Source of the DNA: an uncultured Rickettsiales bacterium
GTDB taxonomy: Bacteria > Pseudomonadota > Alphaproteobacteria > Rs-D84
DNA: 64,000 bases
Direction of reading: 5' to 3'
NCBI GenBank assembly: GCA_900550565.1
Contig: URSG01000003.1
Location: forward strand, 287-64,286
Part shown: positions 6,230 through 57,944 of the stretch, in pieces
How the letters are laid out: every line of letters begins with the position of its first letter
Position numbering within the stretch: position 1 is the stretch's first letter
Notes under the pieces: generated by a model
Databases searched by the model: none
The model's input: the letters and a program-made list of their open reading frames with translations, nothing else
What the model was told of the DNA's origin: nothing
Made by a program: the position numbers and the translations under genes

Positions 6230-6263
6230 AATAAAAATACCCGTTTTGGGTATTTTCAGATAT

Positions 6264-6594: not shown

Positions 6595-6603
6595 CGTTTT
6601 GTC

Positions 6604-6864: not shown

Positions 6865-6874
6865 AGTAAGGACT

Positions 6875-6902
6875 ATTCTATTACGAAAAAAACTTTTGTC
6901 AA
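6875..6902 (-). promoter_or_regulatory. candidate sigma70 promoter (TTGACA-16-TAGAAT)
   Basis: Minus-strand TTGACA and TAGAAT. The -10 element ends 10 nt before the ATG at 6864, so the leader would be very short. Confidence 0.5.
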
Positions 6903-6983
6903 TCTTTTTTTTGTCGTTATGTCTTGACCCTTGGGCTAAAAATTTGCTATTGTTGCAGTGTCAAATATAGGGGAAAGCAAAGT

Positions 6984-9725: not shown

Positions 9726-9740
9726 AAACGGGGTGCCGAA

Positions 9741-10865: not shown

Positions 10866-10868
10866 AAT

Positions 10869-10896
10869 TCGCCGAACATGTCGGCGATTTTATTTT
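10869..10896 (+). terminator. rho-independent terminator
   Basis: Stem TCGCCGA/TCGGCGA followed by a T-rich run. Confidence 0.6.
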
Positions 10897-10970
10897 GGCA
10901 GTCCCAAGGGGAATTGAACCCCTGTTCCCAGAATGAGAATCTGGTGTCCTGACCGCTAGACGATGGGACC
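10896..10970 (-). tRNA. tRNA-Glu (anticodon CUC)
   Basis: The reverse complement, GGTCCCATCGTCTAGCGGTCAGGACACCAGATTCTCATTCTGGGAACAGGGGTTCAATTCCCCTTGGGACTGCCA, folds as a cloverleaf. Anticodon loop is TTCTCAT. Confidence 0.9.
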
Positions 10971-11054
10971 AAGCGTGGCCTATGATAACATCTTTTTCAT
11001 ATTTTGCAAAAAGAAAACACGCGCCGCCGGCAAAAACTGTGCAAAGACAGACAG

Positions 11055-11083
11055 TTGAAAAAATGTGTTTTTTGCGGTATAAT
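11055..11083 (+). promoter_or_regulatory. near-consensus sigma70 promoter TTGAAA-17-TATAAT
   Basis: The -10 element ends 6 nt before the ATG at 11090, and no Shine-Dalgarno lies between them. Confidence 0.55.
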
Positions 11084-11089
11084 TTGCGT

Positions 11090-12163
11090 ATGTCGTATGC
11101 TACAAAGAATCTTTTTATTGTGTTGGGAATTTGCGCAGGTATGCCGTTATTGTGCCGCGCAGCAAGTTTGCTGGAATCTGCGTCGTTCCCAAAAACAACA
11201 GGGGATTTAAGTTTTGTTGACAGAATAACCCTCCAGGAAAGTGATTATGAAATATTTAAAGATTTGTCCCCATACGACCAGTTGGACATAATATATACGG
11301 ACCAGGGTATAAATGATGAAGTGGCGGCGGACTATTTAATGGACGCGCAACAGGCCGAACAAAAAACTGATGCGAACGGTGCCACAAACGTGGCGTCTGG
11401 GCCTGGGGCGACAACGACGCCTGGCCAGCCAACGGATACAGGTTCTGCGCCGGCGGTTGCCACGCCCAGCCCGACGCCCGTGGCCACCACACCCAGCCCT
11501 GCGCCTGTGACCACCACGTCCGGCCCCTGTCCTGCGCCACCGACAGATGCGACGTATTGTGCGCAATCTGCGCCACATATTCCAAAAAATCAAAAAATAC
11601 CATTTGGCAAACCCCTGTCAGACTATCTGTTTTGTTCTGATTATGGCCTGCGTTCTATGGGGAAACAAAAGGTTTATGATAAGAAAACGGGGAAATGGAT
11701 TACAAAAACCATATGGGACACACACTATGGTATGGACATAGGTTGCAGAGATGAATTTTATAACAAGCCTGTCTATGCCACGGCCGATGGCATCGTAGAA
11801 CTCGCAAAACCAAATCGCCCGGGCAGTTCTGCGGGAAACTATATTGTTATAAATCATGGAAATGGATTCAAGACCAGATATATGCACCTGAATAATATGT
11901 TGGTGGCCAAGAACCAGCATGTCCAGGCCGGGTGCCAGATTGCAACGGTTGGATACACCGGTGGTGCCAAGGTGAACAAGGCGTCACTTAGGAAACAGAA
12001 ATGTCCCACTATGCGCAAATCAATTTCCCATTTGCACTATGAAATACTTTACAATGGGTCGTTAAAAAGCGTGACCGGACCGGACGGCAAAACCGTGCGA
12101 ATTGTTCATGGAATTCGCAACAGCAACGCCATTGACCCCGCGCCATTTATGGGTGAAAAGTAA
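11090..12163 (+). CDS. M23 family metallopeptidase (secreted, Pro/Thr-rich linker)
   Basis: HYGMDIG...ADG...NHGNGFKTRYMHL...SHLHYE LytM motifs. Signal peptide begins at MSYATKNLFIVLGICAGMPLLCRAAS. Start trimmed from 10982. Confidence 0.85.
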   Translation: MSYATKNLFIVLGICAGMPLLCRAASLLESASFPKTTGDLSFVDRITLQESDYEIFKDLSPYDQLDIIYTDQGINDEVAADYLMDAQQAEQKTDANGATNVASGPGATTTPGQPTDTGSAPAVATPSPTPVATTPSPAPVTTTSGPCPAPPTDATYCAQSAPHIPKNQKIPFGKPLSDYLFCSDYGLRSMGKQKVYDKKTGKWITKTIWDTHYGMDIGCRDEFYNKPVYATADGIVELAKPNRPGSSAGNYIVINHGNGFKTRYMHLNNMLVAKNQHVQAGCQIATVGYTGGAKVNKASLRKQKCPTMRKSISHLHYEILYNGSLKSVTGPDGKTVRIVHGIRNSNAIDPAPFMGEK

Positions 12164-21595: not shown

Positions 21596-22339
21596 ATGAC
21601 ACGATTTCGCATAACACTTGAATATGACGGCACAGATTTAATCGGCTGGCAAGAAAATCGCCAGGGCCCGTCTGTGCAATCTGTGCTGCGTGATGCGATT
21701 TATGCGTTTTGTGGTGTGCGGCCCGATGTTGTCGCCGCCGGACGCACAGATGCCGGTGTGCACGCGATTGCAATGGTTGCGCATTTTGATTTGCCGGGTG
21801 ATTATACTGCGAACACGGTTATGCGTGCGGTGAATTTTTATCTGGTGGGGCAACCAGTTGCGATATTGTCCTGTGATATTGTCCCAGATGATTTTAATGC
21901 GCGATTTGATTGCGTGGCGCGCCACTATAAATATATTGTTTTGAACCGCAGTGCCGCGCCAGTGTTAAATAAAAATCGCGTGTGGTGGGTGCCACGTGCG
22001 CTGGACGTCGCCGCAATGCGCAATGCTGCAACGCGCCTGGTTGGTCATCACGATTTTACCAGTTTTCGCGCCACCCAGTGCCAGGCAAAAAGTCCGATAA
22101 AAACACTGGACGTTTGCAACATTACGGCCGATGGCGACAATATTATTTTTGAATTTTCGGCGCGGTCATTTCTGCATCACCAGGTGCGAAATATGGTTGG
22201 AACGCTGGTTGAAATCGGACTGGGGAAACCATACGATATTGATGAAATATTTGCCGCGCGTGCGCGCAGTGCGGCTGGGCCAACTGCGCCGGCATCGGGA
22301 CTGTATTTTATTTCGGCTGATTATGCCACGGACGATTGA
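21596..22339 (+). CDS. truA: tRNA pseudouridine(38-40) synthase
   Basis: RITLEYDGTDLIGWQ and the catalytic AAGRTDAGVHA motif. Confidence 0.95.
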   Translation: MTRFRITLEYDGTDLIGWQENRQGPSVQSVLRDAIYAFCGVRPDVVAAGRTDAGVHAIAMVAHFDLPGDYTANTVMRAVNFYLVGQPVAILSCDIVPDDFNARFDCVARHYKYIVLNRSAAPVLNKNRVWWVPRALDVAAMRNAATRLVGHHDFTSFRATQCQAKSPIKTLDVCNITADGDNIIFEFSARSFLHHQVRNMVGTLVEIGLGKPYDIDEIFAARARSAAGPTAPASGLYFISADYATDD

Positions 22340-24242
22340 TTGGCATATACTGGACTAGGCCAGATTTATATATCACAAATCCACCATGTAGAATTTTATG
22401 ATCGCAATGTGGGGCGTCAATATTGAAATACGACACGATGTATTTAACGCTGTCGTCACGGCACAGTTGAACGATGTTTTTGGCCAGTGGCACAAATTTC
22501 TGGATATAAACTAATTTGAATTTTGGCGTGTCAAACGTATAAACGCCGTGGTCGTGTTTTTTACGTATGTTGGGTGTGCCTGTTTTTTCGCCACGCAACT
22601 GTTTCCAGGTATCAAATGCAAAGTAATGATTTGACGCGCGCGATTTATTAAATATCAGTTTTCCATCTTGGACGAATCCAACCAATTCATCGTCGTATGT
22701 TGCCATAAATACAGGACGCGGCGTAATGATAACGACGCCTGTTGCAATCAGTGCAATTACACAGAATAAAATATAGTTTATTTTCCTGGTGCTGAATTTT
22801 ATCAACACCAATGTCATAAACGCCAGTATGCACAATGTGAGCGCCGTGTTTGATATATGTGGCATATTTACCGTTGCCCCAGGCATAGAAACGATTTTTT
22901 GTGCCGTGGCCAGTGTCACGTTATATATCTGGTCGGCCCAGTGCAATGGGAAATGTATTCCGAACACTGCGCCGATTGTGCCAACGATGACCAGTGGCAT
23001 AATTGCAACTGAAAATATCGGCAACAGCACCAGGTTGCCAATCAATCCATATAATGGGAACGAATAAAAATGCGCGATAACAAACGGGGCGGTAAATACA
23101 GTTGCAACAAGCGATGTCATCGTTGCAGTGAACAAGAATTTTAATATCTTGTTTTCTGGGGTGCGCGGTCGCACCACGCCCCAAAACCAAACCAGTCCAA
23201 AAATTGCGGCAAATGATAATTGAAATCCGGCCTGCATAACGTAATGCGGATTGATACAGAATATTACCAACATCGCCATACACACATTGCGCAGTGAAAT
23301 TGCGTCGCGTCCCATTATGATTGCTGTGAAAACAAGTGACGCCATCAAAAACGCACGCATAGTCGCAACATCACAGCCGGATAAAAATAAATAAAACAAC
23401 AATCCCACCCACGCGCATACTGTTGCTGGAATACGCGCCGGCATACGACGGGTTATTGGCGCAACCAGGCGAAATATGCAAAAGAATATCGCGAACAACC
23501 ACCCTGATACCAGGGTCACGTGAAAACCACTGATTGACCAAACGTGTCCGATTCCAACCGCCGTCCATACCGACCTGTCGTCACGTGGCACGGCGTTTTT
23601 GTATCCCATAACCAAACTGTCGCCCAGGAACGAATTTGCACGGCTGTGCAAATAATCGCGCAGTTTTGCGATATTGCCGCCACCGTTGTGCGCCAAGATT
23701 TGAAAATCTTTGATATATCCTGTGGCGGTTAAACCATTAAAGTATGACCATCGTGCATAGTCAAATGACGCCGGCCCATACGCAGGACTGGGGCGATACA
23801 GGTTCACCGTTGCGCGCACTGTGTCGCCAATTTTAGGAATGTCGCCGTCGGGTGATGTTGATACGCGAACTGTTGCCGCGCGTTCGGTAATTTGGCCCGG
23901 TGCAACGCGAATAAAAATACGCGCCCGATTATCTGTATAGTCCAGGTCTTTTACATCGCCGACAACAACAACGTTGCGCAATGGACGCGAAATCTGTGGT
24001 GTTGAAAATGTGTGCGTAAATGCCATCGCATACACAAATCCAAACGCAAATACGAAAACCGCACGCAACAGCAATGGCACGCGTCGTATCATTGCCAGTG
24101 CGCCAAACAGTATCACAAAAATCCACGGAAAAATAATATTGGGTTCTGTTATGCGCGTGAAATACAGCGCGGCACCAAATGCCAATAAAAATGGCAACCA
24201 TAAAAACAAGTTATCTGATTGATTGTTCCAGAATTTCTGCAT
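22308..24242 (-). CDS. comEC: ComEC/Rec2 family DNA internalisation channel (no recognisable metallo-beta-lactamase domain)
   Basis: Polytopic membrane protein with a DUF4131-like N-terminus and a competence domain. No HxHxDH motif in the C-terminal 150 aa. Start set to the ATG at 24242; the track start at 24278 is a TTG that doubles as a -35 element. Confidence 0.8.
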   Translation of the reverse strand: MQKFWNNQSDNLFLWLPFLLAFGAALYFTRITEPNIIFPWIFVILFGALAMIRRVPLLLRAVFVFAFGFVYAMAFTHTFSTPQISRPLRNVVVVGDVKDLDYTDNRARIFIRVAPGQITERAATVRVSTSPDGDIPKIGDTVRATVNLYRPSPAYGPASFDYARWSYFNGLTATGYIKDFQILAHNGGGNIAKLRDYLHSRANSFLGDSLVMGYKNAVPRDDRSVWTAVGIGHVWSISGFHVTLVSGWLFAIFFCIFRLVAPITRRMPARIPATVCAWVGLLFYLFLSGCDVATMRAFLMASLVFTAIIMGRDAISLRNVCMAMLVIFCINPHYVMQAGFQLSFAAIFGLVWFWGVVRPRTPENKILKFLFTATMTSLVATVFTAPFVIAHFYSFPLYGLIGNLVLLPIFSVAIMPLVIVGTIGAVFGIHFPLHWADQIYNVTLATAQKIVSMPGATVNMPHISNTALTLCILAFMTLVLIKFSTRKINYILFCVIALIATGVVIITPRPVFMATYDDELVGFVQDGKLIFNKSRASNHYFAFDTWKQLRGEKTGTPNIRKKHDHGVYTFDTPKFKLVYIQKFVPLAKNIVQLCRDDSVKYIVSYFNIDAPHCDHKILHGGFVIYKSGLVQYMPINRPWHNQPK

Positions 24243-24248
24243 ACAGAA

Positions 24249-24278
24249 ATTATAGGAATTTATATCGTCGGCCTGCAA
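24249..24278 (-). promoter_or_regulatory. candidate promoter TTGCAG-18-TATAAT, with the -10 ending 6 nt before the comEC ATG
   Basis: Read on the minus strand. No Shine-Dalgarno lies between the -10 and the ATG. Confidence 0.45.
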
Positions 24279-26394: not shown

Positions 26395-27546
26395 ATGAGA
26401 AGGGTTTTAATCGCATTTTTTATCGGTGTTTTTTTATCTGGTGGCGCGATGGCGGCACCGTATCGTGCGGCACTGGTTGCAGATATGGATACAGGCCGCG
26501 TTTTAATCAAGGAAAATGCAGATCAACTAAATTACCCAGCGTCGCTGACAAAAATTATGACGCTGTATTTAACATTTGACGCGTTGGAACACGGGCGGTT
26601 GCACCTGGACGATTATCTGATTGTATCAAATTCTGCGGCGGCTGCGTCGCCGGTAAAACTGGGAATTGCCGCCGGCAGCAAGATTAGTGTCCAAGACGCA
26701 ATAAAGGCGGTCGCGGTGCTGAGTGCGAACGACGTCGCACGCGTGTTGGCCGAAAATTTAAAGGGTGGCAAAGAAGGAAACTTTGCCGATACAATGACGC
26801 GTGTTGCAAATGAAATTGGGCTGGCGAATACTAATTTTGAAAATTCATCTGGGTTGCCAAATGACGATCATCTGTCAACGGCGCGCGATATTGCATTGCT
26901 GTCTATGGCGGTGTATAAACATTTCCCACAATATTGGAAATATTTTGGTATCAAGACGTGGACATATAACGGCAAAACATATACCAACGGGAATCGTTTG
27001 TTGGCGTCATATCCAGGCTGTGATGGTATGAAGACCGGATTTACAAACAAATCACGTTATTCGTTGGTTGCCACCGCAAAGCGTGACGGCACGCATCTGA
27101 TTGTTGTGATATTGGGCGCAGAAAACAAAGACGTGCGCGCGTCTGTGGCGACCCAGTTGTTAAATCGTGGCTTTGCAATGTTGAAATCGGGCAGTGCGCC
27201 AATCGTTAAAAATACACCTGTTGCGACGACGCAACCACAAACGATGTCTGCGGCATACAGTGCGGCAACTGCGTCTGTGGCACCAACATACGATGTGACG
27301 CCGGCGCGCACGGTGACGGCGACGGGAACTGGAAATTCAGGGGTGCAATTCGGGGCGTTTTCATCGCACAATGCCGCCGCAACCCAGGTTAAAAATGTAA
27401 AGGCAAAACTGGGTATTACCAGTGTGATTGAACCGACGTCAAATGGTATGTATCGCGTCCGCACGTATGGGTTGAGCCAGACTGCGGCGGCCGACGTTCG
27501 TGCGCGTGCGTCTGCAATGGGTATTGACTGTTATGTGTTTCATTGA
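26395..27546 (+). CDS. D-alanyl-D-alanine carboxypeptidase (S11, PBP5/6-like) with C-terminal SPOR domain
   Basis: SLTK, SAND and KTGFT motifs. C-terminal GVQFGAFSS...MYRVRTYGLS...GIDCYVF is SPOR-like. Confidence 0.9.
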   Translation: MRRVLIAFFIGVFLSGGAMAAPYRAALVADMDTGRVLIKENADQLNYPASLTKIMTLYLTFDALEHGRLHLDDYLIVSNSAAAASPVKLGIAAGSKISVQDAIKAVAVLSANDVARVLAENLKGGKEGNFADTMTRVANEIGLANTNFENSSGLPNDDHLSTARDIALLSMAVYKHFPQYWKYFGIKTWTYNGKTYTNGNRLLASYPGCDGMKTGFTNKSRYSLVATAKRDGTHLIVVILGAENKDVRASVATQLLNRGFAMLKSGSAPIVKNTPVATTQPQTMSAAYSAATASVAPTYDVTPARTVTATGTGNSGVQFGAFSSHNAAATQVKNVKAKLGITSVIEPTSNGMYRVRTYGLSQTAAADVRARASAMGIDCYVFH

Positions 27547-32951: not shown

Positions 32952-33299
32952 TTATATTTTTTGTATGTATTTAAACAATGCGTCTGGGGTTTGAATTCGG
33001 GCGCGGCGTATGCCGATTACGCGCTTGGTAAAATCAACACAGGTTATACCGCGCATATTATCCGTTTGTGGCGTCGCGTTTGGAATACATACGAATTTCC
33101 AGCCGTGTCTGCGCAGTGTGTTCATATCGCGCACGTCCAGTGCCAATCGCGCGATTTTGTGACGTGTCACAAATTGATACATAACAAATGGTTTCTTGGC
33201 CCCAGACGCAGTAATAATTGGCGCGCAATGCCGAAAGTGCCGACATAAAACGCGTGGCAAAAACTTTGATGTCTGGGTGCAAAATGCAACGATTATCAT
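32952..33299 (-). CDS. hypothetical protein (115 aa, basic, 6 Cys)
   Basis: AAGGA RBS 7 nt upstream and a start 16 nt after the stop of the upstream gene. Codon usage looks native. No family recognised. Confidence 0.45.
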   Translation of the reverse strand: MIIVAFCTQTSKFLPRVLCRHFRHCAPIITASGAKKPFVMYQFVTRHKIARLALDVRDMNTLRRHGWKFVCIPNATPQTDNMRGITCVDFTKRVIGIRRARIQTPDALFKYIQKI

Positions 33300-33314: not shown

Positions 33315-33668
33315 CTAGTCTTGGATAATCCAACCGCGTGCGATTGCGGCCTCGCCGATGGTTTGCATTGCGCGTCGCCATAAATCAGCAGCGCGATTTT
33401 CGGCCCAAATATATTGATGTGGTGCGCGTCGTCGGTCGCCGAATTCCTTCATCACAGATAATTGTTCATCAGATAATTTTCCACACAGATATAATTTTGT
33501 TATCAGCGTTTCCACATCTACCAGTTCTGCAACACGACGCGTGGCGCAATCGCGCGGTCGCATAAAACCATTACGAACAGACTTTGAATACAGAAACCAA
33601 AACCACATTTGTTCTGCATTGTGAAATTTTTCCGGTGCATATTCTGGTTGATTGTGTTGTGCTGTCAT
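33315..33668 (-). CDS. hypothetical protein (117 aa, possible HTH/sigma-region-4-like segment)
   Basis: Strong AAGGAG RBS. The segment KLSDEQLSVMKEFGDRRRAP resembles region-4-type HTH proteins, but only weakly. Confidence 0.5.
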   Translation of the reverse strand: MTAQHNQPEYAPEKFHNAEQMWFWFLYSKSVRNGFMRPRDCATRRVAELVDVETLITKLYLCGKLSDEQLSVMKEFGDRRRAPHQYIWAENRAADLWRRAMQTIGEAAIARGWIIQD

Positions 33669-33835: not shown

Positions 33836-33905
33836 AAAAAAACAAAAAACGCGCCATTTGGCGCGCAACGTTAAAAAAATCCCCACATATTTGTGGGGAA
33901 TTTTT
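33836..33905 (-). terminator. two tandem rho-independent terminators after virB10
   Basis: TCCCCACA/TGTGGGGA plus T7 (33872-33905), then GCGCGCC/GGCGCGC plus a T-run (33836-33868), on the minus strand. Confidence 0.75.
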
Positions 33906-36299
33906 TTACAAGATTGGTGGGAAACAATCACCACCGGTTTCTGGGCAACAATTAAATCCTTGGTCGCCCATATCTGTATATATTTCGCCCGTGCAACATC
34001 CGTTTGCATCAGGTGTCGTCCCGTCTTCACAGGTAATTACAGCCTGGGCGGTGTCTTCTTCCTTTTTGGCCGCCTGGAACGGATTTTGAATAGAGCCGTC
34101 TTCGTTATATTTCAGTCCCAAAACGTTTTCATTGTATGATTTGGTGCCGACGCCCCCTGTGCTGGCAATACTGTTAGAATTATTCGCGTCTTGTTGATTC
34201 TGGTATATTGCCGCCTGGCGCACGTTGTTGATTGCCTGGTAATTCAGTGATTTGCAATACGTCAACACGGTGCGGTAATCGTATCCAGCCTCGTATATTC
34301 TTTGTGGTGTATCTTTGTCGGAATTTATTGTCCACATATTGTCTTTGCCTTGGATGCAATATTGGCTTAAATCAAACGACCGAACCTGGCCAGTCCACGA
34401 GCCATCGTTGTAATCGGCCTTGCCACTGTGTTGCCAGTTAGGCCGTTTGTTCCGATCGCCTTTTTGTGAACTTGCCTTAACTTTGGCCACAGAACATATT
34501 TTATCACTTTTTTCGCCACATGTGATAACCAAATCGGCGGGTGAAAATACCGTTATACGTGTGCCGGCCGCGATTGAAAATGGTGGCACGGTATTGTCCA
34601 GCATATCCACAATAAACTTTTGGGCAACCTGGTTCCAGGCGGTGATAATTTCATTTTTTGCCAATTCAGATGAACGCACGGTGCCAGATTGCACAACCGT
34701 ATTGTTGTCCAAATCAATTTGATTCACAAATTTATCGGTAATTGGCGCAATCATATTCACCGCCGCCGGCACAACCGCGGTCAGCAATGGCAATACCATT
34801 TGTTCAATATAATCTGTGCTGCCATATCCGGGAACGCCCGCGCGTCCCTGTGAATCGCCAGAAAATGGATCTTCATTTGAATTACCTGTAAAGTTAAATT
34901 CAACACCATTTGGTAAAATAAATTGATACCAGCGAATATCCATACGACCAACAGTTTTATATGGCCCGGGAATTTCACCCGTGACATATCCTAATAACAG
35001 TGTTCCGGCCGGGATTACAACCGTGCGGCCATTGTCAGAATACACATTACGGTCAACCGTTGCGCGTACGGGTAATGATCGCGCACCCTCTTTATACAAC
35101 GATGGGTCGGCGCGAACCTCGGACACAATGGTGGCCGGAATCGGTTTATATTGACGTAACACAAACGTGCGGTCATACGGGTCAGACGAATAAAATGCGT
35201 CCCCACTGGTTCCGATATGAACATCGCCAGAATTGTCGCGCATTGTGATACCACCACGAAAACGGTCGGCGGTTTCAGCCCCCGTTGCAGATGCAGACAT
35301 CTGTTCAATTTCATCGGTTGTCAGTTGGTATGCACGATTTTTAACGCGCGTCACCGGATTAGACAACTGGGGCAATGCGCCACCGGCACTGGCGTCAGTG
35401 TATCCGATGTGTTCGGCATCTGTGCCAATCTTTTTCCCAGGTGTTTTTATATCGGTAATTATACCACTGTCTGGATTATAGACGCCCGTTGGATTGTTGC
35501 ATTTTTTATCAGAAAATGGGTGGAAATAATACGCGCCACGTTCGGGACGAATCCAACCGATTTGTGTGCCGTTTGCATCATAGCCCGGGAATGCAAATTC
35601 AGAACACGGCGTAGATGGGGTATCATCTGCCACTTTTGTGTTGTTGTGGTCGTTGTCTGCGAACGGGTCGGCCGGTGCCAGTGTTTCAACCTGTTGCTTG
35701 ATTTCCTGTTGAACAGGTTTTGGCGCAGGTTCTGGTGTTGGTTCGGCCGGCTGTTTAATTTCAGGCGCAACCGACGATAACACCAAAATCAGTTTTTCTG
35801 CGTTTGACATTTTTTCCGGCTGGTGTACGTCGTGCCAGTCAATGAATAACGCCAGTGTTTTGCTGTCCATTGCCACAGTTGGCGCGTATTTCAGCGTGAT
35901 ATTGCAACCGGTCACCTGGTTTATTTCGGCCATTTTTTTACAGGTTTCTTTGATGTCCAGTCCAGCAATTTGGTCGTGATAACGCACGTCTTTGATTTTA
36001 ACCGGCGCTGTGGCCTTGACGTTCAGTTGAATTTCTTTGGTGGTGCCAACCGTGACATCTGTCCAGGTCAATGTATTTTCAGTCCAATCTTCTGGTGGGG
36101 TGGCGGCGACAATCAACTTGATTGGTGCCTCGTCCGCGGTATTTTGAACGCCCGATGATTTGCCACGTCCCCCCAGCAACAGAATCAACAATACCAGCAC
36201 GACGATAAACGCCGCCACCATCAATATCCACTGGATATGCTTTGGGGTTGTTTTACGAATTTCTGTAATTTGCTGTTTGATAGCACTCATATTAAACAC
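33906..36299 (-). CDS. virB10: VirB10/TrbI-family T4SS core protein with extra N-terminal module and Cys-rich C-terminal tail
   Basis: 797 aa. TM helix aa 23-43, Pro-rich linker aa 179-196, TrbI core aa ~375-592 (VIPAGTLLLGYV...MDIRWYQFILPNGVEF...GRAGVPGYGSTDY...AAGTRITVFSPADLVI), then a 205-aa tail. GTG at 36299 or ATG at 36290. Confidence 0.85.
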   Translation of the reverse strand: MFNMSAIKQQITEIRKTTPKHIQWILMVAAFIVVLVLLILLLGGRGKSSGVQNTADEAPIKLIVAATPPEDWTENTLTWTDVTVGTTKEIQLNVKATAPVKIKDVRYHDQIAGLDIKETCKKMAEINQVTGCNITLKYAPTVAMDSKTLALFIDWHDVHQPEKMSNAEKLILVLSSVAPEIKQPAEPTPEPAPKPVQQEIKQQVETLAPADPFADNDHNNTKVADDTPSTPCSEFAFPGYDANGTQIGWIRPERGAYYFHPFSDKKCNNPTGVYNPDSGIITDIKTPGKKIGTDAEHIGYTDASAGGALPQLSNPVTRVKNRAYQLTTDEIEQMSASATGAETADRFRGGITMRDNSGDVHIGTSGDAFYSSDPYDRTFVLRQYKPIPATIVSEVRADPSLYKEGARSLPVRATVDRNVYSDNGRTVVIPAGTLLLGYVTGEIPGPYKTVGRMDIRWYQFILPNGVEFNFTGNSNEDPFSGDSQGRAGVPGYGSTDYIEQMVLPLLTAVVPAAVNMIAPITDKFVNQIDLDNNTVVQSGTVRSSELAKNEIITAWNQVAQKFIVDMLDNTVPPFSIAAGTRITVFSPADLVITCGEKSDKICSVAKVKASSQKGDRNKRPNWQHSGKADYNDGSWTGQVRSFDLSQYCIQGKDNMWTINSDKDTPQRIYEAGYDYRTVLTYCKSLNYQAINNVRQAAIYQNQQDANNSNSIASTGGVGTKSYNENVLGLKYNEDGSIQNPFQAAKKEEDTAQAVITCEDGTTPDANGCCTGEIYTDMGDQGFNCCPETGGDCFPPIL

Positions 36300-36314
36300 C
36301 GCCTGCCAAATCAG

Positions 36315-37847
36315 TTATTGAATACGCACGACACTGCAACTGGCACCGCTGAATTTTAACAACTGGTCGCACAGTTTTTGCGCTGTGTCAATATCAGACA
36401 TTGGGCCAATGCGCAGACGATATAAACGCGCCGCGCGTGATGTTGCACCCAAATCACCGACACCTTGTTCGTCAACGGCAAAGAACACCTTGTCCTTGTA
36501 CGGGGTCAATAAACCCATACCGTCATCGCCACTGAATTTCGCCAACAGTCCCGTCCAGTAATCGTCCAGTGCCTTGACCGATGTGTCAGATTTTAATTCT
36601 ACGGCAACGCCACTTTGATTGCTGGTAATCAATGGGATATTTGTCTGGGGCAGATAAGAACCAGCCGTCACACGTTCTGTTGGAATCATATTTACGCCCG
36701 TCGCGCCCGATGTCGCCACAGCCGCACCTGGAACAGTTGCAACCGATGCCGGCATATAATAACCAGTGCCAGCGGCGGCGTTTGTATTAGAAATGTATGT
36801 CGGTGTTCCTGTGTTATTCACGCCAGCAGTATTGATTGCGTTTTGGTCCATTGAATACGCGATGTTATTCAATGACTGGCCCGACATCATAGATTGCGCA
36901 ACGTTCGCTTCGGCCAATGCCATAACAGACGCCGTGTCTGCAATCAAGAACGGTTTTTCACGCTTTTTAATACATACGATTCGCTGGCCACTGCGCAATA
37001 CCATATCGCCAACGGCTTCTACTATCAACAGGCGGCCATCGTCGCCATCTGTGCGGAAACCGACCGGGGATTCGCCACCTTCTACCAGTAATGATACAAC
37101 CGGACGTTGGGTCATTGCGATAACCTTGTCGCCAAAGTCAATGTATGTGAATATTCTGTCGCGCCATACGCGTTCAGGCGCAATGACGTAATCGTCTGGG
37201 TTTGGAACGAATATATCCAAATCAAATCTGAATTCAGACGGATCAATTTTCATTGATTTAATCCAACCATAATCTTCGCCGTCGGCACCAACCGTGCTGG
37301 CCGTCTTGGGGGCCTTTTTGAATATAGATGATGCGCCACTGGTCGCGTCGTTCGCGCCCGTTGCACCCGGCAGACTGGTATTGCCGTCCAAAACAACTTC
37401 TACCTGGGAATATGTGATTTCGCTGGAATTTGATGGTTCGCTGCGCAGATAAAATATATACTTGTTGCCAGATTTTCCCGTCACAATCAGGTTCGTATCA
37501 GAACCCTGGTTGCTGGCCGTTGGACTGATAATCATTGTGCGGTCACCCTGGTTCGCCTCTATCGTGAACAGGCCCTGGTTTCCAATGACGGCGTCGGCAA
37601 TCTGTTCCCCGTTGGGCAAGGACACCATCGTCACCATACCATTACGTAATTTAATTGGCAAAACGCTGCCCGTGGTCCAAGACAACTGGGCGTATCCGGG
37701 TTTCGTGCTGCCTGCGGCCATATTCGCAGTTGGGTTGTCCCAGGCTTCTTGGACGCCATAGTTCACAGCCGCCGCTGGTGCAATAATGCACATTGATGCC
37801 AAGCAAAACACAGATATATTTAATTTTATTGCTGTCTTAAAACTCAT
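36315..37847 (-). CDS. virB9: VirB9/CagX/TrbG-family T4SS core protein fused to a C-terminal SPOR-like domain
   Basis: 510 aa. Signal peptide, a VirB9 N-domain (MVSLPNGEQIADAVIGNQGLFTIEANQGDRTMIISP...TNLIVTGKSGNKYIFYL) and C-domain (RIFTYIDFGD...VEGGESPVGFRTDG...LRSGQRIVCIKK), a low-complexity linker, then a SPOR-like end (LYRLRIGPMSDIDTAQKLCDQLLKFSGASCSVV). Confidence 0.8.
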   Translation of the reverse strand: MSFKTAIKLNISVFCLASMCIIAPAAAVNYGVQEAWDNPTANMAAGSTKPGYAQLSWTTGSVLPIKLRNGMVTMVSLPNGEQIADAVIGNQGLFTIEANQGDRTMIISPTASNQGSDTNLIVTGKSGNKYIFYLRSEPSNSSEITYSQVEVVLDGNTSLPGATGANDATSGASSIFKKAPKTASTVGADGEDYGWIKSMKIDPSEFRFDLDIFVPNPDDYVIAPERVWRDRIFTYIDFGDKVIAMTQRPVVSLLVEGGESPVGFRTDGDDGRLLIVEAVGDMVLRSGQRIVCIKKREKPFLIADTASVMALAEANVAQSMMSGQSLNNIAYSMDQNAINTAGVNNTGTPTYISNTNAAAGTGYYMPASVATVPGAAVATSGATGVNMIPTERVTAGSYLPQTNIPLITSNQSGVAVELKSDTSVKALDDYWTGLLAKFSGDDGMGLLTPYKDKVFFAVDEQGVGDLGATSRAARLYRLRIGPMSDIDTAQKLCDQLLKFSGASCSVVRIQ

Positions 37848-37886
37848 GCCTGTTTTCCTTACCTTTCTCGTAATACTGTGGACGGA

Positions 37887-38564
37887 TTATTGCCCGTCGT
37901 CCAGATAACCCGTGTCCAGCGGGTCCCCGTTCCCAGATTCAACGCGATATTCTGATACGCGTATCCCCAGTGGGTTGTCCAAACGATCCGACCATTGTAA
38001 TTCGGTCGTGTCGTCCATTTGTAATTTCAGTATAATTGTATAATCTTTTTTGGCAGTCTGTCCACCACTATCTTCACAAAAATACTTAAATTTCACGGCG
38101 TATGTATCCGATGTGCGTGGGGTGACCGCGCCGTTTTCAAATTCTACGCTGCAACTGAATTCAAAATCAGGCGTATTGTTCATCAGGGCGTTCCACATAT
38201 TCGTGCGCGTGAACGCGTTATAGACCGCCGGCGTGGACCACGTATGCACGATGCCCGTGACGTCATTGTTCCATTTACGCAACATAACACGACCGTCTGG
38301 GACGATTTCGTTGCGCGCCTTGATATATTCGCGGATAAATGCGCGTTTATACCATTTGACGTTTTCATCATTGGTGGATAATTCGCTGACAATAACCTGT
38401 TGATCTTCGCGTGGTTGCGTCATCAGAAAAAATACCTGGGGCCGATTGAGTGGGAACATTTTATACAGTGTAAAGCCCAACACCCCCAGCACGACAATCG
38501 CGCCAGCCAGAACAAATGTCATCAATCGTGATAATAAAATTGGCGGTTCTATGCGGTCTTGCAA
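37887..38564 (-). CDS. virB8: VirB8-family T4SS protein
   Basis: 225 aa bitopic protein with a TM helix at aa ~13-35. C-terminal NPLGIRVSEYRV matches the conserved VirB8 NPxG motif. TTG start with an AGGA RBS. Confidence 0.8.
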   Translation of the reverse strand: MQDRIEPPILLSRLMTFVLAGAIVVLGVLGFTLYKMFPLNRPQVFFLMTQPREDQQVIVSELSTNDENVKWYKRAFIREYIKARNEIVPDGRVMLRKWNNDVTGIVHTWSTPAVYNAFTRTNMWNALMNNTPDFEFSCSVEFENGAVTPRTSDTYAVKFKYFCEDSGGQTAKKDYTIILKLQMDDTTELQWSDRLDNPLGIRVSEYRVESGNGDPLDTGYLDDGQ

Positions 38565-38801
38565 TGATTTCCTCTCTCTGTTATTATTAAATCATAGACA
38601 AAAAGTGCAGGTGCGTGCAAGCAAAAAGTGCGAAAAATCAAAAAAAATCAAATCAGTTTTTCAGATTTTACTTGCGCGTGGCGCGTTAAAATCATATAAT
38701 GTATGCGCTTTTTCTGCTTGCTTTTTTGTTCGTGTGTGCTATCCTGGCGCAGACTATCGGAATGGTCACGTGATTGTGCAGGCATAAAAGCGACCAAAAA
38801 C

Positions 38802-38875
38802 AGGGGCATAGTTCAACGGTAGAATATCGGTCTCCAAAACCGCGGATAAGGGTTCGATTCCTTTTGCCCCTGCCA
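38802..38875 (+). tRNA. tRNA-Trp (anticodon CCA)
   Basis: AGGGGCATAGTTCAACGGTAGAATATCGGTCTCCAAAACCGCGGATAAGGGTTCGATTCCTTTTGCCCCTGCCA. Sits in the canonical position upstream of secE-nusG. Confidence 0.95.
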
Positions 38876-55493: not shown

Positions 55494-57944
55494 ATGAAAA
55501 GACTGATTGTTGTATTGAGTGGATTGCTGGTTTTGCCCGCATTTGCAGAGGTTGCGCCCGCATATTACTATGACGACGTTATTGAATATTCGGATACGGA
55601 TATTGATTCTGACGTTGATGATGTGGTGATTGCTGACGACGCAGATGTGGCCCAGGATACAGGCAAGACGTCTGTCCCGACGGTTGCGTCACGCACGGTT
55701 GCAAATACCAATTCGCGTGCGGCGGCCGCGTCGCCACGTGCAACGGCGTCTGGTCGTGTGGCATCGGCGCGTAATAATGCCACGTCATCACGCACGGTCA
55801 CGGCACGTACAGCGACAACGTCGCGTGCAAATGTTTCGCGTGCAAACGTATCGCGCGCAGCGGCAACATCGTCGGCGAATAAAAATGTTTCTGCACGTCG
55901 CGCAGTGTCAAATACAACTGCGGCGCGCGCATCAATCGTGCAAACTGATACAGTCAACACACCGTTATACACCGGACGTGTTGGTGTGCGCGGTCAATCT
56001 GTGACAACGCGTGTCCCAACGGTTCGTATGGCGGCGGCGTCAACAGCCACAGATACGTCCAAGACATCATCTGCCAGCAGCACAACCGATATGGACGAAT
56101 TGGCCCAGGTCACCGATTTTTGCAAGGCCCAGTATCAGTCTTGTATGGATAATTTCTGTAATGTTCTGGACGATAACCAGGGACGTTGCAGTTGCAGCAA
56201 AAATTTAAAGAATTACGAAAAAACCGAAGCGGCACTGAAACAAGCAACCGAAGATTTACAAGACGTCGCGCAAAAGATTCAGTATATCGGTTTGTCCAAG
56301 GACGAAGTGGAAACCTTGTTCACCCAGACCGAGGCTGAATTAAAAATGCAGGGTTCCAGTGACAATTCCCAGTTGAAAACTGATTTGGATAAAATCAAAA
56401 GCCTGATTGTTGATGTGAAATCGGGCAGTGCGTCGTCCGTCAGTGACAGTGGGTTGAGTTTTGATTTGTCCGGTCTGTTGGACTTTACAGTCAGCAGCAC
56501 AGGTTTTGATTTAAGTGCGTTTTTGGGCAATTCATCAAATACGTCCAGCATCAGCAACCAACGTGGCGAACAGTTGTACAAGACTGCGACGGCACGGTGC
56601 AAGGCGGCGGTTCTGAATACGTGCAGTGCCCAGGGTGTTGACATTTCTGTTATCACAAATGCATACGATTTGGAAATTGATAAACAGTGCATCGTATATG
56701 AACGCGCGTTGACGGATTCTAATGACCAGATGGCGTCAACGGTGCGCAATGCGAAATCTGTATTGCAAAAGGCGCGTTTGTTGGTCGCACAACAGAAAAA
56801 TACATACGATTTGCGTGGGTGCGTAAATGCGCTGGATTCATGTATGCAAGATGATTTTGTCTGTGGGTCTGATTATGAAAACTGTTTGGATCCGACCGGC
56901 AAATACATCGTTGATGGTAAAATCGTCGTAGGCAGCACACCTGGTCAAAAGGTTGACGCAGATGTCGCCGCGCCTAAGTATTATACAGATAATTTGTATG
57001 CAACGTGGAATTATGGCGACAAGAAAAACGCCTGGGGTGACGATGGCACGCTGAGTGATTATATCACCCAAACTGTCACAAACAGTAATGTGACCAAGAC
57101 GTCTGAAATAATGTCTAATTATTTGCAGTATAAAATTGGCTATAACGCCGACGGCAAGAATTATGGTATGTGTATGTCTGTCTTGAACAAGTGCCAGGAT
57201 ATTACATACAAGGGTGCAGGTCAGAACAAAACCTATGATCCACAAAACAACGTGGTCAAGGAATATCTGCAACGTACGTTGACCCAGATAAAGGCGAAAC
57301 AAGATGAACTGTTGGCCAGTTATGCAGAAACCTGTATTTCTGATGTGTCGTCGTGCCTGGGCCAGAACGGATACAGCACATCGTCAACCACAACAACCAG
57401 TCAATCGGCCAAGAATATCGCAATCAATGCGTGCCGTGCGTCAATCGTGACATGTATGTCTGTCAATGGTATGACCAATGTGACACCGACACCAGATTCT
57501 ATGATTTCGTGGGTCAGTGCAGTTATTGATAAAAGTGCGACAACCGAATATCCAACACCAAAACCATCAGGCCCCGACCTGTATGTGACATGTGCGACGT
57601 GTAAAAAAGGTGGCTATTCGTGGAAAAATGGCACGTGCGTAGCAAAAATCAACTATGCTGACATTACATCATCGTCGGCGTGCGCAACCCAGGGAGGCAG
57701 TTGGGTTCCTGGGACGTGTACGTATGTTGCGAACAACGTGCCAGACCTTAATGATATGTTGATATCGTTAAAGGATGACCATTGGACCGTGACACAGACG
57801 GGTCAAAATGTAAAGGCGACCAAGAGAGCAGAGTTTAGCGCATGTCAAGATGGTATTAGCGAAATGAATGGTCGGTTAGATGCTGGCACTGACGTGTCCT
57901 TGACATACAAAGATGCTGTGTGTACTGAAAAGGCATGTGAATAA
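55494..57944 (+). CDS. large secreted Cys-rich coiled-coil protein with basic Arg/Ser/Thr/Ala-rich N-terminal region
   Basis: 816 aa. Signal peptide (LPAFA/EV), SRANVSRANVSRA repeats, Cys cluster CKAQYQSCMDNFC...CSC, and C-terminal CATCKKGGYSWKNGTC and CATQGGSWVPGTC motifs resembling the 608-aa protein. Confidence 0.75.
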   Translation: MKRLIVVLSGLLVLPAFAEVAPAYYYDDVIEYSDTDIDSDVDDVVIADDADVAQDTGKTSVPTVASRTVANTNSRAAAASPRATASGRVASARNNATSSRTVTARTATTSRANVSRANVSRAAATSSANKNVSARRAVSNTTAARASIVQTDTVNTPLYTGRVGVRGQSVTTRVPTVRMAAASTATDTSKTSSASSTTDMDELAQVTDFCKAQYQSCMDNFCNVLDDNQGRCSCSKNLKNYEKTEAALKQATEDLQDVAQKIQYIGLSKDEVETLFTQTEAELKMQGSSDNSQLKTDLDKIKSLIVDVKSGSASSVSDSGLSFDLSGLLDFTVSSTGFDLSAFLGNSSNTSSISNQRGEQLYKTATARCKAAVLNTCSAQGVDISVITNAYDLEIDKQCIVYERALTDSNDQMASTVRNAKSVLQKARLLVAQQKNTYDLRGCVNALDSCMQDDFVCGSDYENCLDPTGKYIVDGKIVVGSTPGQKVDADVAAPKYYTDNLYATWNYGDKKNAWGDDGTLSDYITQTVTNSNVTKTSEIMSNYLQYKIGYNADGKNYGMCMSVLNKCQDITYKGAGQNKTYDPQNNVVKEYLQRTLTQIKAKQDELLASYAETCISDVSSCLGQNGYSTSSTTTTSQSAKNIAINACRASIVTCMSVNGMTNVTPTPDSMISWVSAVIDKSATTEYPTPKPSGPDLYVTCATCKKGGYSWKNGTCVAKINYADITSSSACATQGGSWVPGTCTYVANNVPDLNDMLISLKDDHWTVTQTGQNVKATKRAEFSACQDGISEMNGRLDAGTDVSLTYKDAVCTEKACE

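Follow-up and report, generated by a model that had tools for sequence, protein, structure and literature searches.

The cassette at positions 33906-38564 (- strand) of the window, by which the whole 64,000-nt stretch of DNA analysed is meant, encodes VirB8, a VirB9 fused to a peptidoglycan-binding SPOR domain, and a long VirB10. It is conserved, syntenic, under strong purifying selection, and without linked T4SS ATPases. The cassette is tentatively interpreted, with a probability of about 0.45, as a functional, vertically inherited VirB-type envelope-spanning core, namely the minimised conduit of a non-conjugative T4SS whose VirB4-like ATPase, VirB3, and VirB6 would lie at unlinked loci and which would mediate import or contact-dependent exchange of macromolecules. 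The DNA comes from Candidatus Enterousia, a gut lineage without cultured members in the alphaproteobacterial order Rs-D84. Genomes of this lineage span 0.75-1.0 Mb, and the one in question is approximately 0.9 Mb.

Gene neighborhood and operon limits

Three co-directional, intact ORFs make up the cassette, which is flanked by tRNA-Trp/secE on one side and by yidC-lspA on the other. The following features were identified.

32952..33299, - strand: orf115, a small, less conserved ORF downstream of orf117
33315..33668, - strand: orf117, a putative conserved cytoplasmic protein of 117 aa, located past the terminators and preceded by a ribosome-binding site of its own
33849..33899, - strand: two tandem intrinsic-terminator-like hairpins with T runs, closing the virB8-10 transcription unit
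33906..36299, - strand: virB10, encoding a bitopic 797-aa protein that has a cytoplasmic tail and crosses the membrane by a helix at residues 19-42 (Pfam TrbI, PF03743)
36315..37847, - strand: virB9 fused to SPOR, 510 aa (Pfam CagX, PF03524, E 5e-21, residues 54-295)
37887..38564, - strand: virB8, 225 aa (Pfam VirB8, PF04335, E 7e-14, residues 5-208)
38565..38801, - strand: leader/promoter region of 237 nt from tRNA-Trp to virB8, as read from the sequence
38802-38875, + strand: tRNA-Trp, followed by secE and nusG

Both operon limits given in the first-pass annotation were found, with tRNA-Trp/secE before virB8 and two terminators past virB10. Terminator 1 (33899-33880; 8 pairs and TTTTTTT) lies directly past the virB10 stop, and terminator 2 (33866-33849) has 7 pairs, 6 of them GC, and TTTTTTGTTTT. 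The virB8 gene starts with TTG, preceded by the ribosome-binding site GAGAGAGGA. The 237-nt leader contained no VirB7-lipoprotein-like ORF and no Rfam element, and a promoter scan of its - strand gave no consensus sigma-70-type match.

All larger ORFs of the window were checked using precomputed Pfam annotations of identical contigs or our own scans, and none matched VirB4, VirB11, VirD4, VirB6/TrbL, a pilin, a relaxase, or an integrase. The earlier claim that the window encodes only the VirB8/9/10 scaffold, with no T4SS ATPase, VirB6, pilin, or transfer gene, was thus upheld among the ORFs checked, and VirB4, VirB11, VirD4, and VirB6 were also not detected across the window and its nearest flanks (~68 kb). 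The core-chromosome setting between yidC-lspA and secE-nusG, free of integrase, relaxase, and att duplication, was likewise as described; the sole match in a search for tRNA-Trp repeats was an imperfect 15/17 nt inside yidC, at chance level. The GC fraction of the cassette (0.47-0.495) is close to that of its flanks (0.45-0.49). Envelope-biogenesis genes are among the neighbors, namely yidC, lspA, and a PBP5-type carboxypeptidase gene here and genes for PBP1a, M23 peptidases, and secD in other lineages.

Domain structure of VirB8, VirB9, and VirB10

Assignment of the three proteins to VirB families was confirmed by PF04335, PF03524, and PF03743, all of which passed the Pfam thresholds. VirB8 crosses the membrane by a single helix, which separates a short cytoplasmic N-terminus from the periplasmic VirB8 domain; the latter ends in NPLGIRVSEYRV, the hallmark motif noted previously. 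Identity of VirB8 between species is 47-87% (dN/dS 0.07-0.10), and an N-terminal IEPPILLSRLMTFV motif is retained in divergent lineages.

The two outer-membrane-complex proteins are remodelled, as first reported: VirB9 by the SPOR domain, and VirB10 by Ig-like, hypervariable, and 6-Cys parts. VirB9 comprises a signal peptide, an N-domain with a weak match to TrwF, a C-domain, a helical and low-complexity linker, and the C-terminal addition listed here.

36318..36614, - strand: SPOR (peptidoglycan-binding) domain of VirB9, ~residues 412-510 (Pfam PF05036)

The CagX match spans the whole model, and the TIGR02781 VirB9 model gave 51 bits. PF05036 scored 23.4 bits with whole VirB9 and 26.7 bits with the isolated C-terminus (cut-off 21), and precomputed Pfam annotation lists SPOR in many homologues and in L175. 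The top match of the domain in a PDB sequence search was the SPOR domain of CwlC, at only E 0.5. The pattern LYRLRIGP...C...C.VVR.Q is invariant in 7 divergent lineages. No mention of SPOR on VirB9 was found in the T4SS literature searched. Across 80 species VirB9 is 74-96% identical, higher than YidC, LspA, KsgA, and RecR, and its dN/dS of 0.03-0.07 resembles that of NusG and RplA.

VirB10 matched PF03743 at residues 382-589 (E 1e-15). Against NCBIfam it scored 55 bits with the VirB10 model and 45 bits with the ComB10 model, both far under the equivalog cut-offs (220-300; 300 for ComB10). Searches of PDB with phmmer returned CagY (1e-4) and ComB10 (2e-3), and Foldseek with the AF2 model returned CagY, TrwE, ComB10, Xanthomonas VirB10, and TraF (E 2e-8 to 7e-6). 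The dN/dS of VirB10 is 0.12-0.16. The following regions were distinguished.

35769..36116, - strand: residues 62-177, extra periplasmic Ig-like (ASH/PapD-like) beta-sandwich with 2 conserved Cys (AF2, Foldseek)
35418..35606, - strand: residues 232-294, small conserved beta domain, C..FA..Y...G...GWI......C...G (AF2 pLDDT 71-80)
34500..35174, - strand: residues 376-600, TrbI/VirB10 barrel (Pfam span, AF2 helices)
34125..34499, - strand: residues 601-725, C-terminal extension, hypervariable within species (conspecific comparison)
33909..34049, - strand: residues 751-797, 6-Cys terminal module, C.DG..PD.NGCC.GE.YTDMG..GFNCCP..GGDCFPPI (conservation 0.73-0.93)

The Ig-like domain was modelled by AF2 with strands at pLDDT 60-77 and gave ASH/PapD-like Foldseek matches (E ~2e-4) as well as a faint, sub-threshold Pfam ASH match (E 0.06); it is common to homologues with merely 26-32% identity. 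The domain at 232-294 has no Pfam match, and its C232, G248, W249, and C267, which include two invariant Cys, are invariant family-wide. In the AF2 model the two long helices of the barrel (495-517 and 543-569) occupy the outer-membrane antenna position, and residues 501-575, the antenna-like region, form the most conserved stretch of the protein (column conservation 0.84-0.97).

The extension at 601-725 varies at 69/125 sites among 11 conspecific sequences whose neighboring genes are 99-100% identical. Its 7 distinct sequences fall into ~3-4 allele classes with 51-64% identity and 3 Cys kept; local dS is 0.15-0.67 versus 0.02-0.05 in the flanks, with dN/dS ~0.37. We read these variants as probable imported mosaic alleles. 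The 6-Cys module matched no Pfam family. It also terminates unrelated envelope proteins or is repeated in tandem.

Distribution, synteny, and selection

A VirB9-SPOR relative is encoded in 275 species-representative genomes, and a relative of VirB10 was found in a further 140 metagenome stretches. The survey for the same cassette and fusions that had been suggested earlier found them both in related species, which number in the hundreds, and in Alphaproteobacteria of more distant lineages. Gene order was identical in all 80 species-representative loci examined. Distant lineages, with VirB10 identity down to 26%, encode VirB8, VirB9-SPOR, and long VirB10 together in other housekeeping contexts, and in one of them a gene for a 57-aa lipoprotein immediately precedes virB8, thereby occupying the usual position of VirB7.

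The reading frames of virB8-10 are intact in 87/89 loci, the two short ones seeming truncated, probably by contig ends, and purifying selection is strong (dN/dS 0.03-0.16). Pseudogene decay, which the first-pass annotation had named as an outcome that would overturn its reading, is excluded by these data. Up to 10 kb from the cassette, neither a T4SS ATPase (VirB4, VirB11, VirD4) nor VirB6 was detected in ~170 loci that represent several genomic contexts, as checked by tblastn with one S. meliloti reference set and by precomputed Pfam annotations.

Comparison with known systems

The rvh T4SS of Rickettsiales resembles the cassette in being chromosomal, vertically inherited, VirB-type, and part of reduced-genome Alphaproteobacteria, with genes scattered over several loci and no conjugative functions (PMC2653234). 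In rvh, virB8-virB9-virB10 is directly followed by virB11-virD4, whereas in Enterousia virB10 is closed off by two terminators and has no linked ATPase; since the ~170 loci lack a nearby ATPase, the rvh analogy is weakened. Neither SPOR on a VirB9 nor the extra VirB10 domains are reported in the literature searched.

In the ComB system of H. pylori, B8-B9-B10 also lie in one operon apart from the ATPase operon, VirD4, VirB11, and VirB5 are missing, and ComB works with ComEC (PMC12857230). ComB10 is among the top PDB matches of Enterousia VirB10 in both sequence and fold. However, Helicobacter belongs to a different bacterial class, and ComB9 and ComB10 are short proteins with no counterpart of the SPOR, Ig-like, or Cys-rich additions.

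The Cag system of H. pylori provides a likeness in its VirB9/VirB10 homologues CagX/CagY, which are enlarged by lineage-specific domains, and CagY, the top PDB match of the VirB10 core, varies within species by recombination. Unlike the cassette, Cag is a pathogenicity island gained by horizontal transfer and has a complete ATPase set, and the variable part of CagY is repeat-based and N-terminal to the barrel, whereas that of Enterousia is a small Cys-stabilised domain C-terminal to it. Peptidoglycan-anchored outer-membrane complexes, such as those with DotK of Legionella Dot/Icm (OmpA-like domain) and Xanthomonas VirB7-N0 (PMC3093366), share with Enterousia an accessory domain added to the outer-membrane core complex, which possibly ties it to the wall. 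In Enterousia the wall-binding module is of the SPOR type and is part of the VirB9 polypeptide. Bartonella Trw is a comparable T4SS derivative. Having lost its coupling protein, it took on a role in surface interaction, and its exposed components are variable (PMC12857230). In contrast to Enterousia it kept VirB4, VirB11, and pilus genes, and its variability is due to gene duplication rather than to allelic mosaics in VirB10.

Proposed function and alternatives

The anatomy set out in the first-pass annotation stands, and its three explanations, a split T4SS, a ComB-like system, and an ATPase-less scaffold, are not separated by the present data. In the first of these, which is favoured, the core would be a fixed chromosomal organelle of reduced-genome gut Alphaproteobacteria of the order Rs-D84. 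By analogy with the pKM101, R388, and Cag core complexes, the N-terminal helix of VirB10 would anchor in the inner membrane, its C-terminal barrel would form a ring below the outer membrane with the VirB9 C-domain, and its two conserved antenna-like helices would line the outer-membrane channel. Because the structure models have low confidence (pLDDT 50 for VirB10 and 35 for VirB9), we infer ring and channel only from these complexes. VirB8 would act as a periplasmic collar on the inner-membrane side. The SPOR domain may pin the ring to peptidoglycan, replacing the anchoring done elsewhere by a VirB7 lipoprotein or a DotK-type subunit, and the VirB10 extension, with its variable domain and 6-Cys module, may be turned towards a changing partner, for example phage, host immunity, or a partner cell. 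Exchange or import would serve an organism unable to make nucleotides, amino acids, and lipids, for which a dependence on metabolites from other cells has been predicted (PMC12306168).

Hints of further partners are provided by the conservation of the antenna-like region, the retention of VirB8, and the 57-aa lipoprotein. In solved T4SSs, such as that of R388, VirB8 is part of the region adjoining the VirB4/VirB6 assembly (PMC9259494), and the conserved cytoplasmic N-termini of VirB8 and VirB10 fit contact with a cytoplasmic or inner-membrane partner. Split chromosomal T4SSs have precedents in Rickettsiales (PMC2653234) and in H. pylori ComB (PMC12857230). Several points count against a split T4SS. 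VirB8/9/10 are only marginally similar to the T4SSs characterised so far (45-55 bits with equivalog models; PDB searches), the structure models have low confidence, and the published genome analysis of Rs-D84 mentions no T4SS (PMC12306168). Moreover, no partner gene is linked to the cassette, whereas in known split systems at least virB11-virD4 or virB4 mostly lies beside some of the core genes.

That missing linkage is one argument for an ATPase-less, repurposed trans-envelope scaffold, in which VirB8, VirB9-SPOR, and VirB10 would join inner membrane, peptidoglycan, and outer membrane. In a lineage from which most envelope and transport genes have disappeared, such a complex would staple the envelope together or provide a large outer-membrane conduit, either passive or energised in another way. 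The housekeeping-level conservation of VirB9, the added SPOR domain, and the envelope-biogenesis neighbors in Enterousia and other lineages agree with it, and there is a precedent in the TraN/TraO/TraF core of pKM101, which assembles and spans both membranes without ATPases. We nevertheless consider it less likely than a split T4SS. VirB8 and the conserved cytoplasmic tails hint at additional partners in the inner membrane or the cytoplasm, and the absence of ATPases applies to the window with its nearest flanks and to the surroundings of the cassette in the ~170 loci. We know of no ATPase-less T4SS derivative. Orphan systems are not mentioned in a T4SS review (PMC12857230), whereas a genome analysis of Rs-D84 that sought means of cell-cell interaction reports neither a T4SS nor standard uptake transporters (PMC12306168), in keeping with a scaffold.

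The same analysis reports no nucleotide biosynthesis for Rs-D84, and type IV pili only in another lineage (PMC12306168), and a ComEC gene (PF03772 and DUF4131) is retained in the ~0.9 Mb genome at 22308-24278 of the window; the idea of ComB-like DNA uptake therefore gains some circumstantial support. The VirB8/9/10 core would then move DNA over the outer membrane and ComEC over the inner one, as in Helicobacter, and imported DNA would supply nucleotides, a scheme compatible, as to its motor, with either a split T4SS or an ATPase-less scaffold. CagY and ComB10 as top PDB sequence matches of the VirB10 core, and the division of ComB itself into comB2-4 and comB6-10 operons (PMC12857230), point in this direction. 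Such uptake appears improbable all the same: the ComB10 score is below that of the generic VirB10 model, the operon lacks ComB6 and ComB7, and ComB4, essential in Helicobacter, was not found in the window or the loci searched. ComEC is moreover found in many bacteria, among them species without known competence, and here is unlinked to the cassette, ~10 kb off beyond unrelated genes. The incomplete gene set and the adjoining tRNA-Trp could also suggest a decaying remnant of an integrated conjugative element or plasmid T4SS inserted there. This has a negligible likelihood and was rejected as refuted by the conservation data: strong purifying selection, strongest in VirB9, rules out a decaying remnant or recent mobile element, and the shared synteny, the matching GC, and the missing integrase, relaxase, and att duplication agree. 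The cassette is also on the 5' side of the tRNA gene, not at its 3' end, and the nearest plasmid VirB10 is just 29% identical, in the core alone.

Adjacent small ORFs

In nearly all Enterousia genomes examined, orf117 and orf115 are syntenic beside the cassette, and whether either is part of the VirB8/9/10 system is uncertain. Neither has a Pfam match. Identity across species is 58-94% for orf117 (dN/dS 0.07-0.09) and 36-68% for orf115 (dN/dS 0.15-0.27). In divergent lineages orf117 is missing, and a different secreted protein of ~120 aa fills its position.

Organization of the cassette

Three intact, closely spaced open reading frames (ORFs) were found on the minus strand at 33906-38564 of the window, and all three were assigned by Pfam to the VirB8, VirB9 and VirB10 families named in the first-pass annotation. 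The PF03524 match on VirB9 spans model positions 5-197 of 198, so that both the N- and C-domains are present, as had been described, and the TrbI core reported for VirB10 was recovered, with ~380 N-terminal and ~200 C-terminal residues lying outside any Pfam annotation. The proposed location between a tRNA-Trp/secE side and a yidC-lspA side, with two terminators behind virB10, was borne out by the following features.

Features of the cassette and its flanks (window coordinates)
37887-38564, minus strand: virB8, 225 aa; Pfam VirB8 (PF04335), E 7e-14, residues 5-208; C-terminal end NPLGIRVSEYRV
36315-37847, minus strand: virB9, 510 aa; Pfam CagX/VirB9 (PF03524), E 5e-21, residues 54-295
33906-36299, minus strand: virB10, 797 aa; Pfam TrbI (PF03743), E 1e-15, residues 382-589 only
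38802-38875, plus strand: tRNA-Trp, followed on that side by secE, nusG, rplKAJL and rpoBC
33899-33880 and 33866-33849: two hairpin-plus-T-run terminators, directly after the virB10 stop codon
33315-33668, minus strand: orf117, a predicted cytoplasmic protein of 117 aa
Other flank: orf117, orf115, yidC, lspA, kefB, ksgA, recR and a PBP5-type carboxypeptidase

The GC content of the cassette was similar to that of its flanks, and an Rfam search for a leader RNA gave nothing beyond tRNAs. All of the larger ORFs in the window were checked, using either the precomputed Pfam annotation of identical contigs or our own scans, and none matched a type IV secretion system (T4SS) ATPase, VirB6, a pilin, a relaxase or an integrase, in agreement with what had been stated for the 64 kb. 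No coupling protein was detected in the window, and VirB7, VirB6/VirB3 and VirB2/VirB5 pilins were detected neither in the window nor in the operon. There was no att-like repeat near the cassette; integration at tRNA-Trp was considered and rejected, the sole repeat being a 15/17-nt match at chance level and the cassette lying on the wrong side of the tRNA.

Conservation and distribution

Contigs encoding exactly this VirB9 protein were numerous in human-gut metagenomes, Hadza samples among them, and the protein was also encoded on an 851 kb contig of the metagenome-assembled genome GCA_940589265.1. In a scan of species representatives, a relative of this protein, which carries a C-terminal SPOR domain (VirB9-SPOR), was found at 75-96% identity in 275 genomes labeled Candidatus Enterousia or uncultured Alphaproteobacteria and obtained from the guts of humans, ruminants, horses, mice and chickens; among these genomes, OZ007020.1 is a closed circular chromosome of 958,618 bp. 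The same three-gene operon with the same fusions, for which a survey of related genomes had been proposed, was found across these relatives and in the divergent lineages described below. The order secE / virB8-virB9-virB10 / ... yidC-lspA-kefB-ksgA-recR was kept, as far as the contig reaches, in 80/80 species-representative loci, nearly all of which also have orf117 and orf115 after virB10. In Enterousia the gene orf117 always lies immediately behind the cassette; its product shows 58-94% identity between species (dN/dS 0.07-0.09), belongs to no known family and is missing from the divergent lineages.

Across the 80 species, VirB9-SPOR identity was 74-96%, lower than that of RplA and NusG and higher than that of YidC (57-88%), LspA, KsgA and RecR. 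The Nei-Gojobori dN/dS of window genes against three other species was 0.03-0.07 for VirB9, 0.02-0.05 for NusG, 0.07-0.10 for VirB8 and 0.12-0.16 for VirB10. VirB10 was full length in 87 of 89 loci, and the other two appear truncated, probably at contig ends. Fixed synteny, low dN/dS and intact genes therefore exclude both a decaying pseudogene cluster and a recently integrated element, and the cassette is ancient, vertically inherited and strongly constrained.

Protein architecture

The SPOR domain (PF05036) scored 23.4 bits on the whole VirB9 protein and 26.7 bits on the isolated C-terminus (cut-off 21), with a match that spans the second half of the model only. The domain is also listed for many VirB9 homologues, and its pattern is conserved in seven lineages. 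SPOR proteins bind denuded glycan strands and localize to the septum. A weak SPOR match was also seen on the PBP5-type D-Ala-D-Ala carboxypeptidase (Peptidase_S11) at 26395-27546 on the plus strand, which suggests that SPOR may be a recurrent wall-binding module in this lineage.

AlphaFold2 (AF2) models had low confidence, with a pLDDT of 35 for VirB9 (from a low-diversity alignment of 19 sequences) and 50 for VirB10 (from nine sequences), and the VirB10 model was used for secondary structure and domain-level fold matches only. Its elements were nevertheless consistent with the sequence data.

Predicted elements of VirB10 (residue numbers)
19-42: transmembrane helix (AF2)
62-177: beta-sandwich (AF2)
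linker: Pro-rich, disordered (AF2)
237-294: small beta domain with invariant Cys, Gly and Trp (AF2 and conservation)
378-593: barrel (AF2), with helices 495-517 and 543-569 at the antenna position

In Foldseek searches the VirB10 core matched CagY, TrwE, ComB10, Xanthomonas VirB10 and TraF (E 2e-8 to 7e-6), and the N-domain matched ASH/PapD-like Ig domains (E about 2e-4). Because of the low confidence of the model, assignment of the two long helices to an outer-membrane antenna is provisional; within the protein, conservation peaks in the antenna-like stretch (column conservation 0.84-0.97).

Allelic variation and the 6-Cys module of VirB10

Among eleven sequences of the window species, the neighboring genes were 99-100% identical and VirB10 88-96% identical, with differences concentrated at residues 326-375 (window 35175-35324) and 601-725 (34125-34499). 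Over residues 601-690, three or four allele classes of 51-64% identity can be distinguished, which retain three Cys residues and several motifs. Synonymous divergence was 0.15-1.3 in the variable regions versus 0.02-0.05 in their flanks, with a dN/dS of about 0.37. Judged from these sequences, the variation bears the signature of imported mosaic alleles, as in surface antigens, and looks like recombination-driven antigenic variation; from this signature we infer that the variable small domain is exposed to a changing partner.

The last 45 residues of VirB10 (751-797, window 33909-34049) form a highly conserved 6-Cys module, C.DG..PD.NGCC.GE.YTDMG..GFNCCP..GGDCFPPI, with no match to a Pfam family. 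Secreted proteins also carry this module in tandem copies, and further envelope proteins have it at their C-termini; its carriers include bitopic proteins of ~700 aa and small membrane proteins of ~80 aa (P0179, P0192, P0229, P0231, P0240, P0299, and locus L177 at 10001-10243). The module may serve this lineage as a docking or anchoring domain of its own. As a lead to other T4SS genes the module was rejected, since its matches were mostly the ~80-aa proteins and the single context read was not a T4SS. That context, at 5257-11096 of locus L177 from an Enterousia-like genome, is a MacB/FtsX-type ABC operon adjoining ftsQ-ftsA. Its products are a 446-aa protein, a permease of the MacB/FtsX type, an ABC ATPase and proteins of 234, 230, 80 (6-Cys) and 278 aa, and none of the non-ABC genes had a Pfam match. 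The operon could be a second envelope machine that has this module in common with VirB10.

Divergent lineages

When VirB10 was searched exhaustively against 1.8 billion representative proteins, the full architecture was confined to proteins of ~800 aa, and a wider family at 26-32% identity was recovered that has the N-terminal domains and the barrel in common. When metagenomes were scanned with this wider family, 140 stretches encoded a relative, and 80 were retained as loci. Divergent members come from the termite gut, a lineage of 33% GC and others. A profile search with the alignment of divergent VirB10 proteins (A2) returned 14 proteins only, and a deep alignment was therefore not obtained.

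Wherever a divergent locus extends upstream of virB10, virB9 (and virB8) adjoin it. The cassette neighbors are again housekeeping genes (mutS and thrS; the atp operon with sodB, miaB, gatAB and secD; dnaX; PBP1a; an ABC exporter), and all divergent VirB9 proteins retain the C-terminal SPOR pattern LYRLRIGP...C...C.VVR.Q. In one distant lineage (L174, 5543-5716), a 57-aa lipoprotein with an LLSGC lipobox is encoded directly upstream of virB8 and is a candidate VirB7. A secreted protein of ~120 aa, unrelated to Enterousia orf117 and orf115, directly follows virB10 at three loci of two divergent lineages (L174, 10882-11247; the closely related L175, 12166-12525, and L098, 4218-4577), with 39-40% identity between lineages. 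Large secreted proteins encoded upstream of virB8 in divergent lineages were considered as VirB4 and rejected, as Big_2 domains, or no Pfam family at all, were recognized in them.

Search for a T4SS motor

A VirB4-family ATPase is the universal hallmark of T4SSs. None was found in the window and its nearest flanks (~68 kb) or within 10 kb of the cassette in ~170 loci, nor did the precomputed Pfam annotations of the loci list a T4SS ATPase in that 10-kb range. VirB1-11 and VirD4 of Sinorhizobium meliloti pRmeGR4a were compared by tblastn with 2.8 Mb of related loci (1.78 Mb, then 1.01 Mb); VirB10 alone was detected, with no hit to VirB11 or VirD4 at any locus, by a single reference set that also failed to detect VirB8 and VirB9 and may miss very divergent homologues. 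In none of the loci read is the cassette linked to a T4SS ATPase.

Comparison with known systems

Homologues of VirB8, VirB9 and VirB10, as in VirB-type (MPF-T-like) T4SSs, are all present, and the parts of the cassette belong to known families, at a considerable distance from the described members. Sequence matches in the PDB were marginal for VirB8, and were to CagY (1e-4) and ComB10 (2e-3) for the VirB10 core and to TrwF (2e-3) for the VirB9 N-domain; the nearest plasmid VirB10 was 29% identical over the core only. NCBIfam equivalog cut-offs are 218-300 bits, and the matches to VirB9 (TIGR02781, 51 bits against 218), VirB10 (55 bits) and ComB10 all scored far lower.

Unlike for a conjugative or integrative element, no relaxase, coupling protein, integrase, att duplication or atypical composition was detected in the window, and all 80 of the species-representative loci read have the cassette in the same gene order. 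It also differs from the Rickettsiales vir homolog (rvh) system in that a virB8-9-10-11-virD4 operon is absent: the terminators directly follow virB10, and then come orf117, orf115 and yidC. The rvh system further has second copies of VirB4, VirB8 and VirB9, and several VirB6 genes, at separate loci. The comB6-comB7-comB8-comB9-comB10 operon of the Helicobacter DNA-uptake system (ComB) was not matched either, as B6 and B7 homologues are absent from the operon, and the ComB10 equivalog model NF038092 scored 44.9 bits against its cut-off of 300. A ComEC protein, as used in the ComB inner-membrane step, is present in the window (22308-24278, minus strand; 656 aa; PF03772, E 1e-51, plus DUF4131), with no metallo-beta-lactamase domain reported. 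It has been kept in a genome of ~0.9 Mb for which type IV pili are not described, which bears on the DNA-uptake hypothesis.

Enterousia is placed in the GTDB order Rs-D84, whose genomes of 0.75-1.0 Mb encode no respiration, no TCA cycle, an incomplete glycolysis and no synthesis of amino acids, nucleotides or lipids, and in which standard uptake transporters are absent (PMC12306168). The same paper proposes a partner-dependent lifestyle, makes no mention of a T4SS and mentions type IV pili for another lineage only (PMC12306168). In the literature searched, no paper was found that links SPOR to VirB9, or Enterousia or Rs-D84 to a T4SS, and a 2025 review of T4SS diversity covers neither SPOR nor orphan core cassettes.

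Interpretation

By analogy with solved core complexes, VirB9 and VirB10 would form a ring joining both membranes, with the conserved VirB10 helices lining an outer-membrane channel and VirB8 forming a collar on the inner-membrane side. The SPOR domain would tie this ring to peptidoglycan, a task that falls to VirB7 or DotK-like subunits in other systems.

The preferred reading, to which we assign a probability of about 0.45, is that the cassette is the core of a split, non-conjugative T4SS, given the conservation of VirB8 and of the cytoplasmic tails, the precedent of split systems and a predicted lifestyle that calls for import or exchange. That VirB8, VirB9-SPOR and VirB10 instead form a scaffold operating without a T4SS ATPase seems somewhat unlikely; this is argued for by the lack of ATPase linkage in several different contexts, conservation at the housekeeping level, envelope-biogenesis genes as neighbors and the silence of the genome paper on T4SSs. 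A ComB-like role in DNA uptake, compatible with either a split T4SS or an ATPase-less scaffold, is held to be improbable: ComEC, the inability to synthesize nucleotides and the mention of type IV pili for another lineage only in the Rs-D84 paper are in its favor, but the match to the ComB-specific model is far below threshold, and no ComB4, ComB6 or ComB7 was detected.

Taken further, the reading without a motor would make the three proteins an ATPase-independent, T4SS-derived organelle of the Rs-D84 core envelope, a peptidoglycan-stapled ring that joins both membranes and provides a large outer-membrane conduit, a proposal that we likewise regard as somewhat unlikely. Such an organelle would display the recombining, hypervariable VirB10 domain and carry the lineage-specific 6-Cys docking module; the MacB/FtsX-type ABC operon and further envelope proteins have this module as well, and coupling of the complex to non-T4SS machinery is therefore conceivable. 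If true, an ATPase-independent derivative would be categorically new.

Rs-D84/Enterousia are widespread in human and animal guts, have genomes below 1 Mb and are thought to live off other cells. Because its core evolves as slowly as NusG, VirB9 carries a SPOR domain and the VirB10 alleles vary like antigens, the cassette is the best current candidate for their interface to partners or for uptake. If partner ATPases exist, it would define a chromosomal T4SS family of the gut microbiome that is new and deeply divergent. If there are none, it would be, to our knowledge, the first T4SS outer-membrane core functioning alone, with a bearing on the evolution and assembly of T4SS modules and on what a core complex can do without a motor.

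Other genes in the window

Several further genes were noted in the window. Three large secreted proteins with signal peptides and no Pfam match are candidate surface or partner-interaction proteins. A Pom-family protein is also encoded; porins of this type have otherwise been described from chlamydial symbionts. The window also holds a tripartite efflux system, kept in a very small genome.

Further genes noted (window coordinates)
55494-57944, plus strand: signal-peptide protein, 816 aa
4356-6182, minus strand: signal-peptide protein, 608 aa
3614-4372, minus strand: signal-peptide protein, 252 aa
62100-63575, plus strand: Pom family (Protochlamydia outer membrane protein, PF17251, E 4e-11), 491 aa
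12674-18125, plus strand: MarR-type regulator, outer-membrane efflux protein (OEP), uncharacterized 212-aa protein and AcrB-type RND pump (1009 aa)
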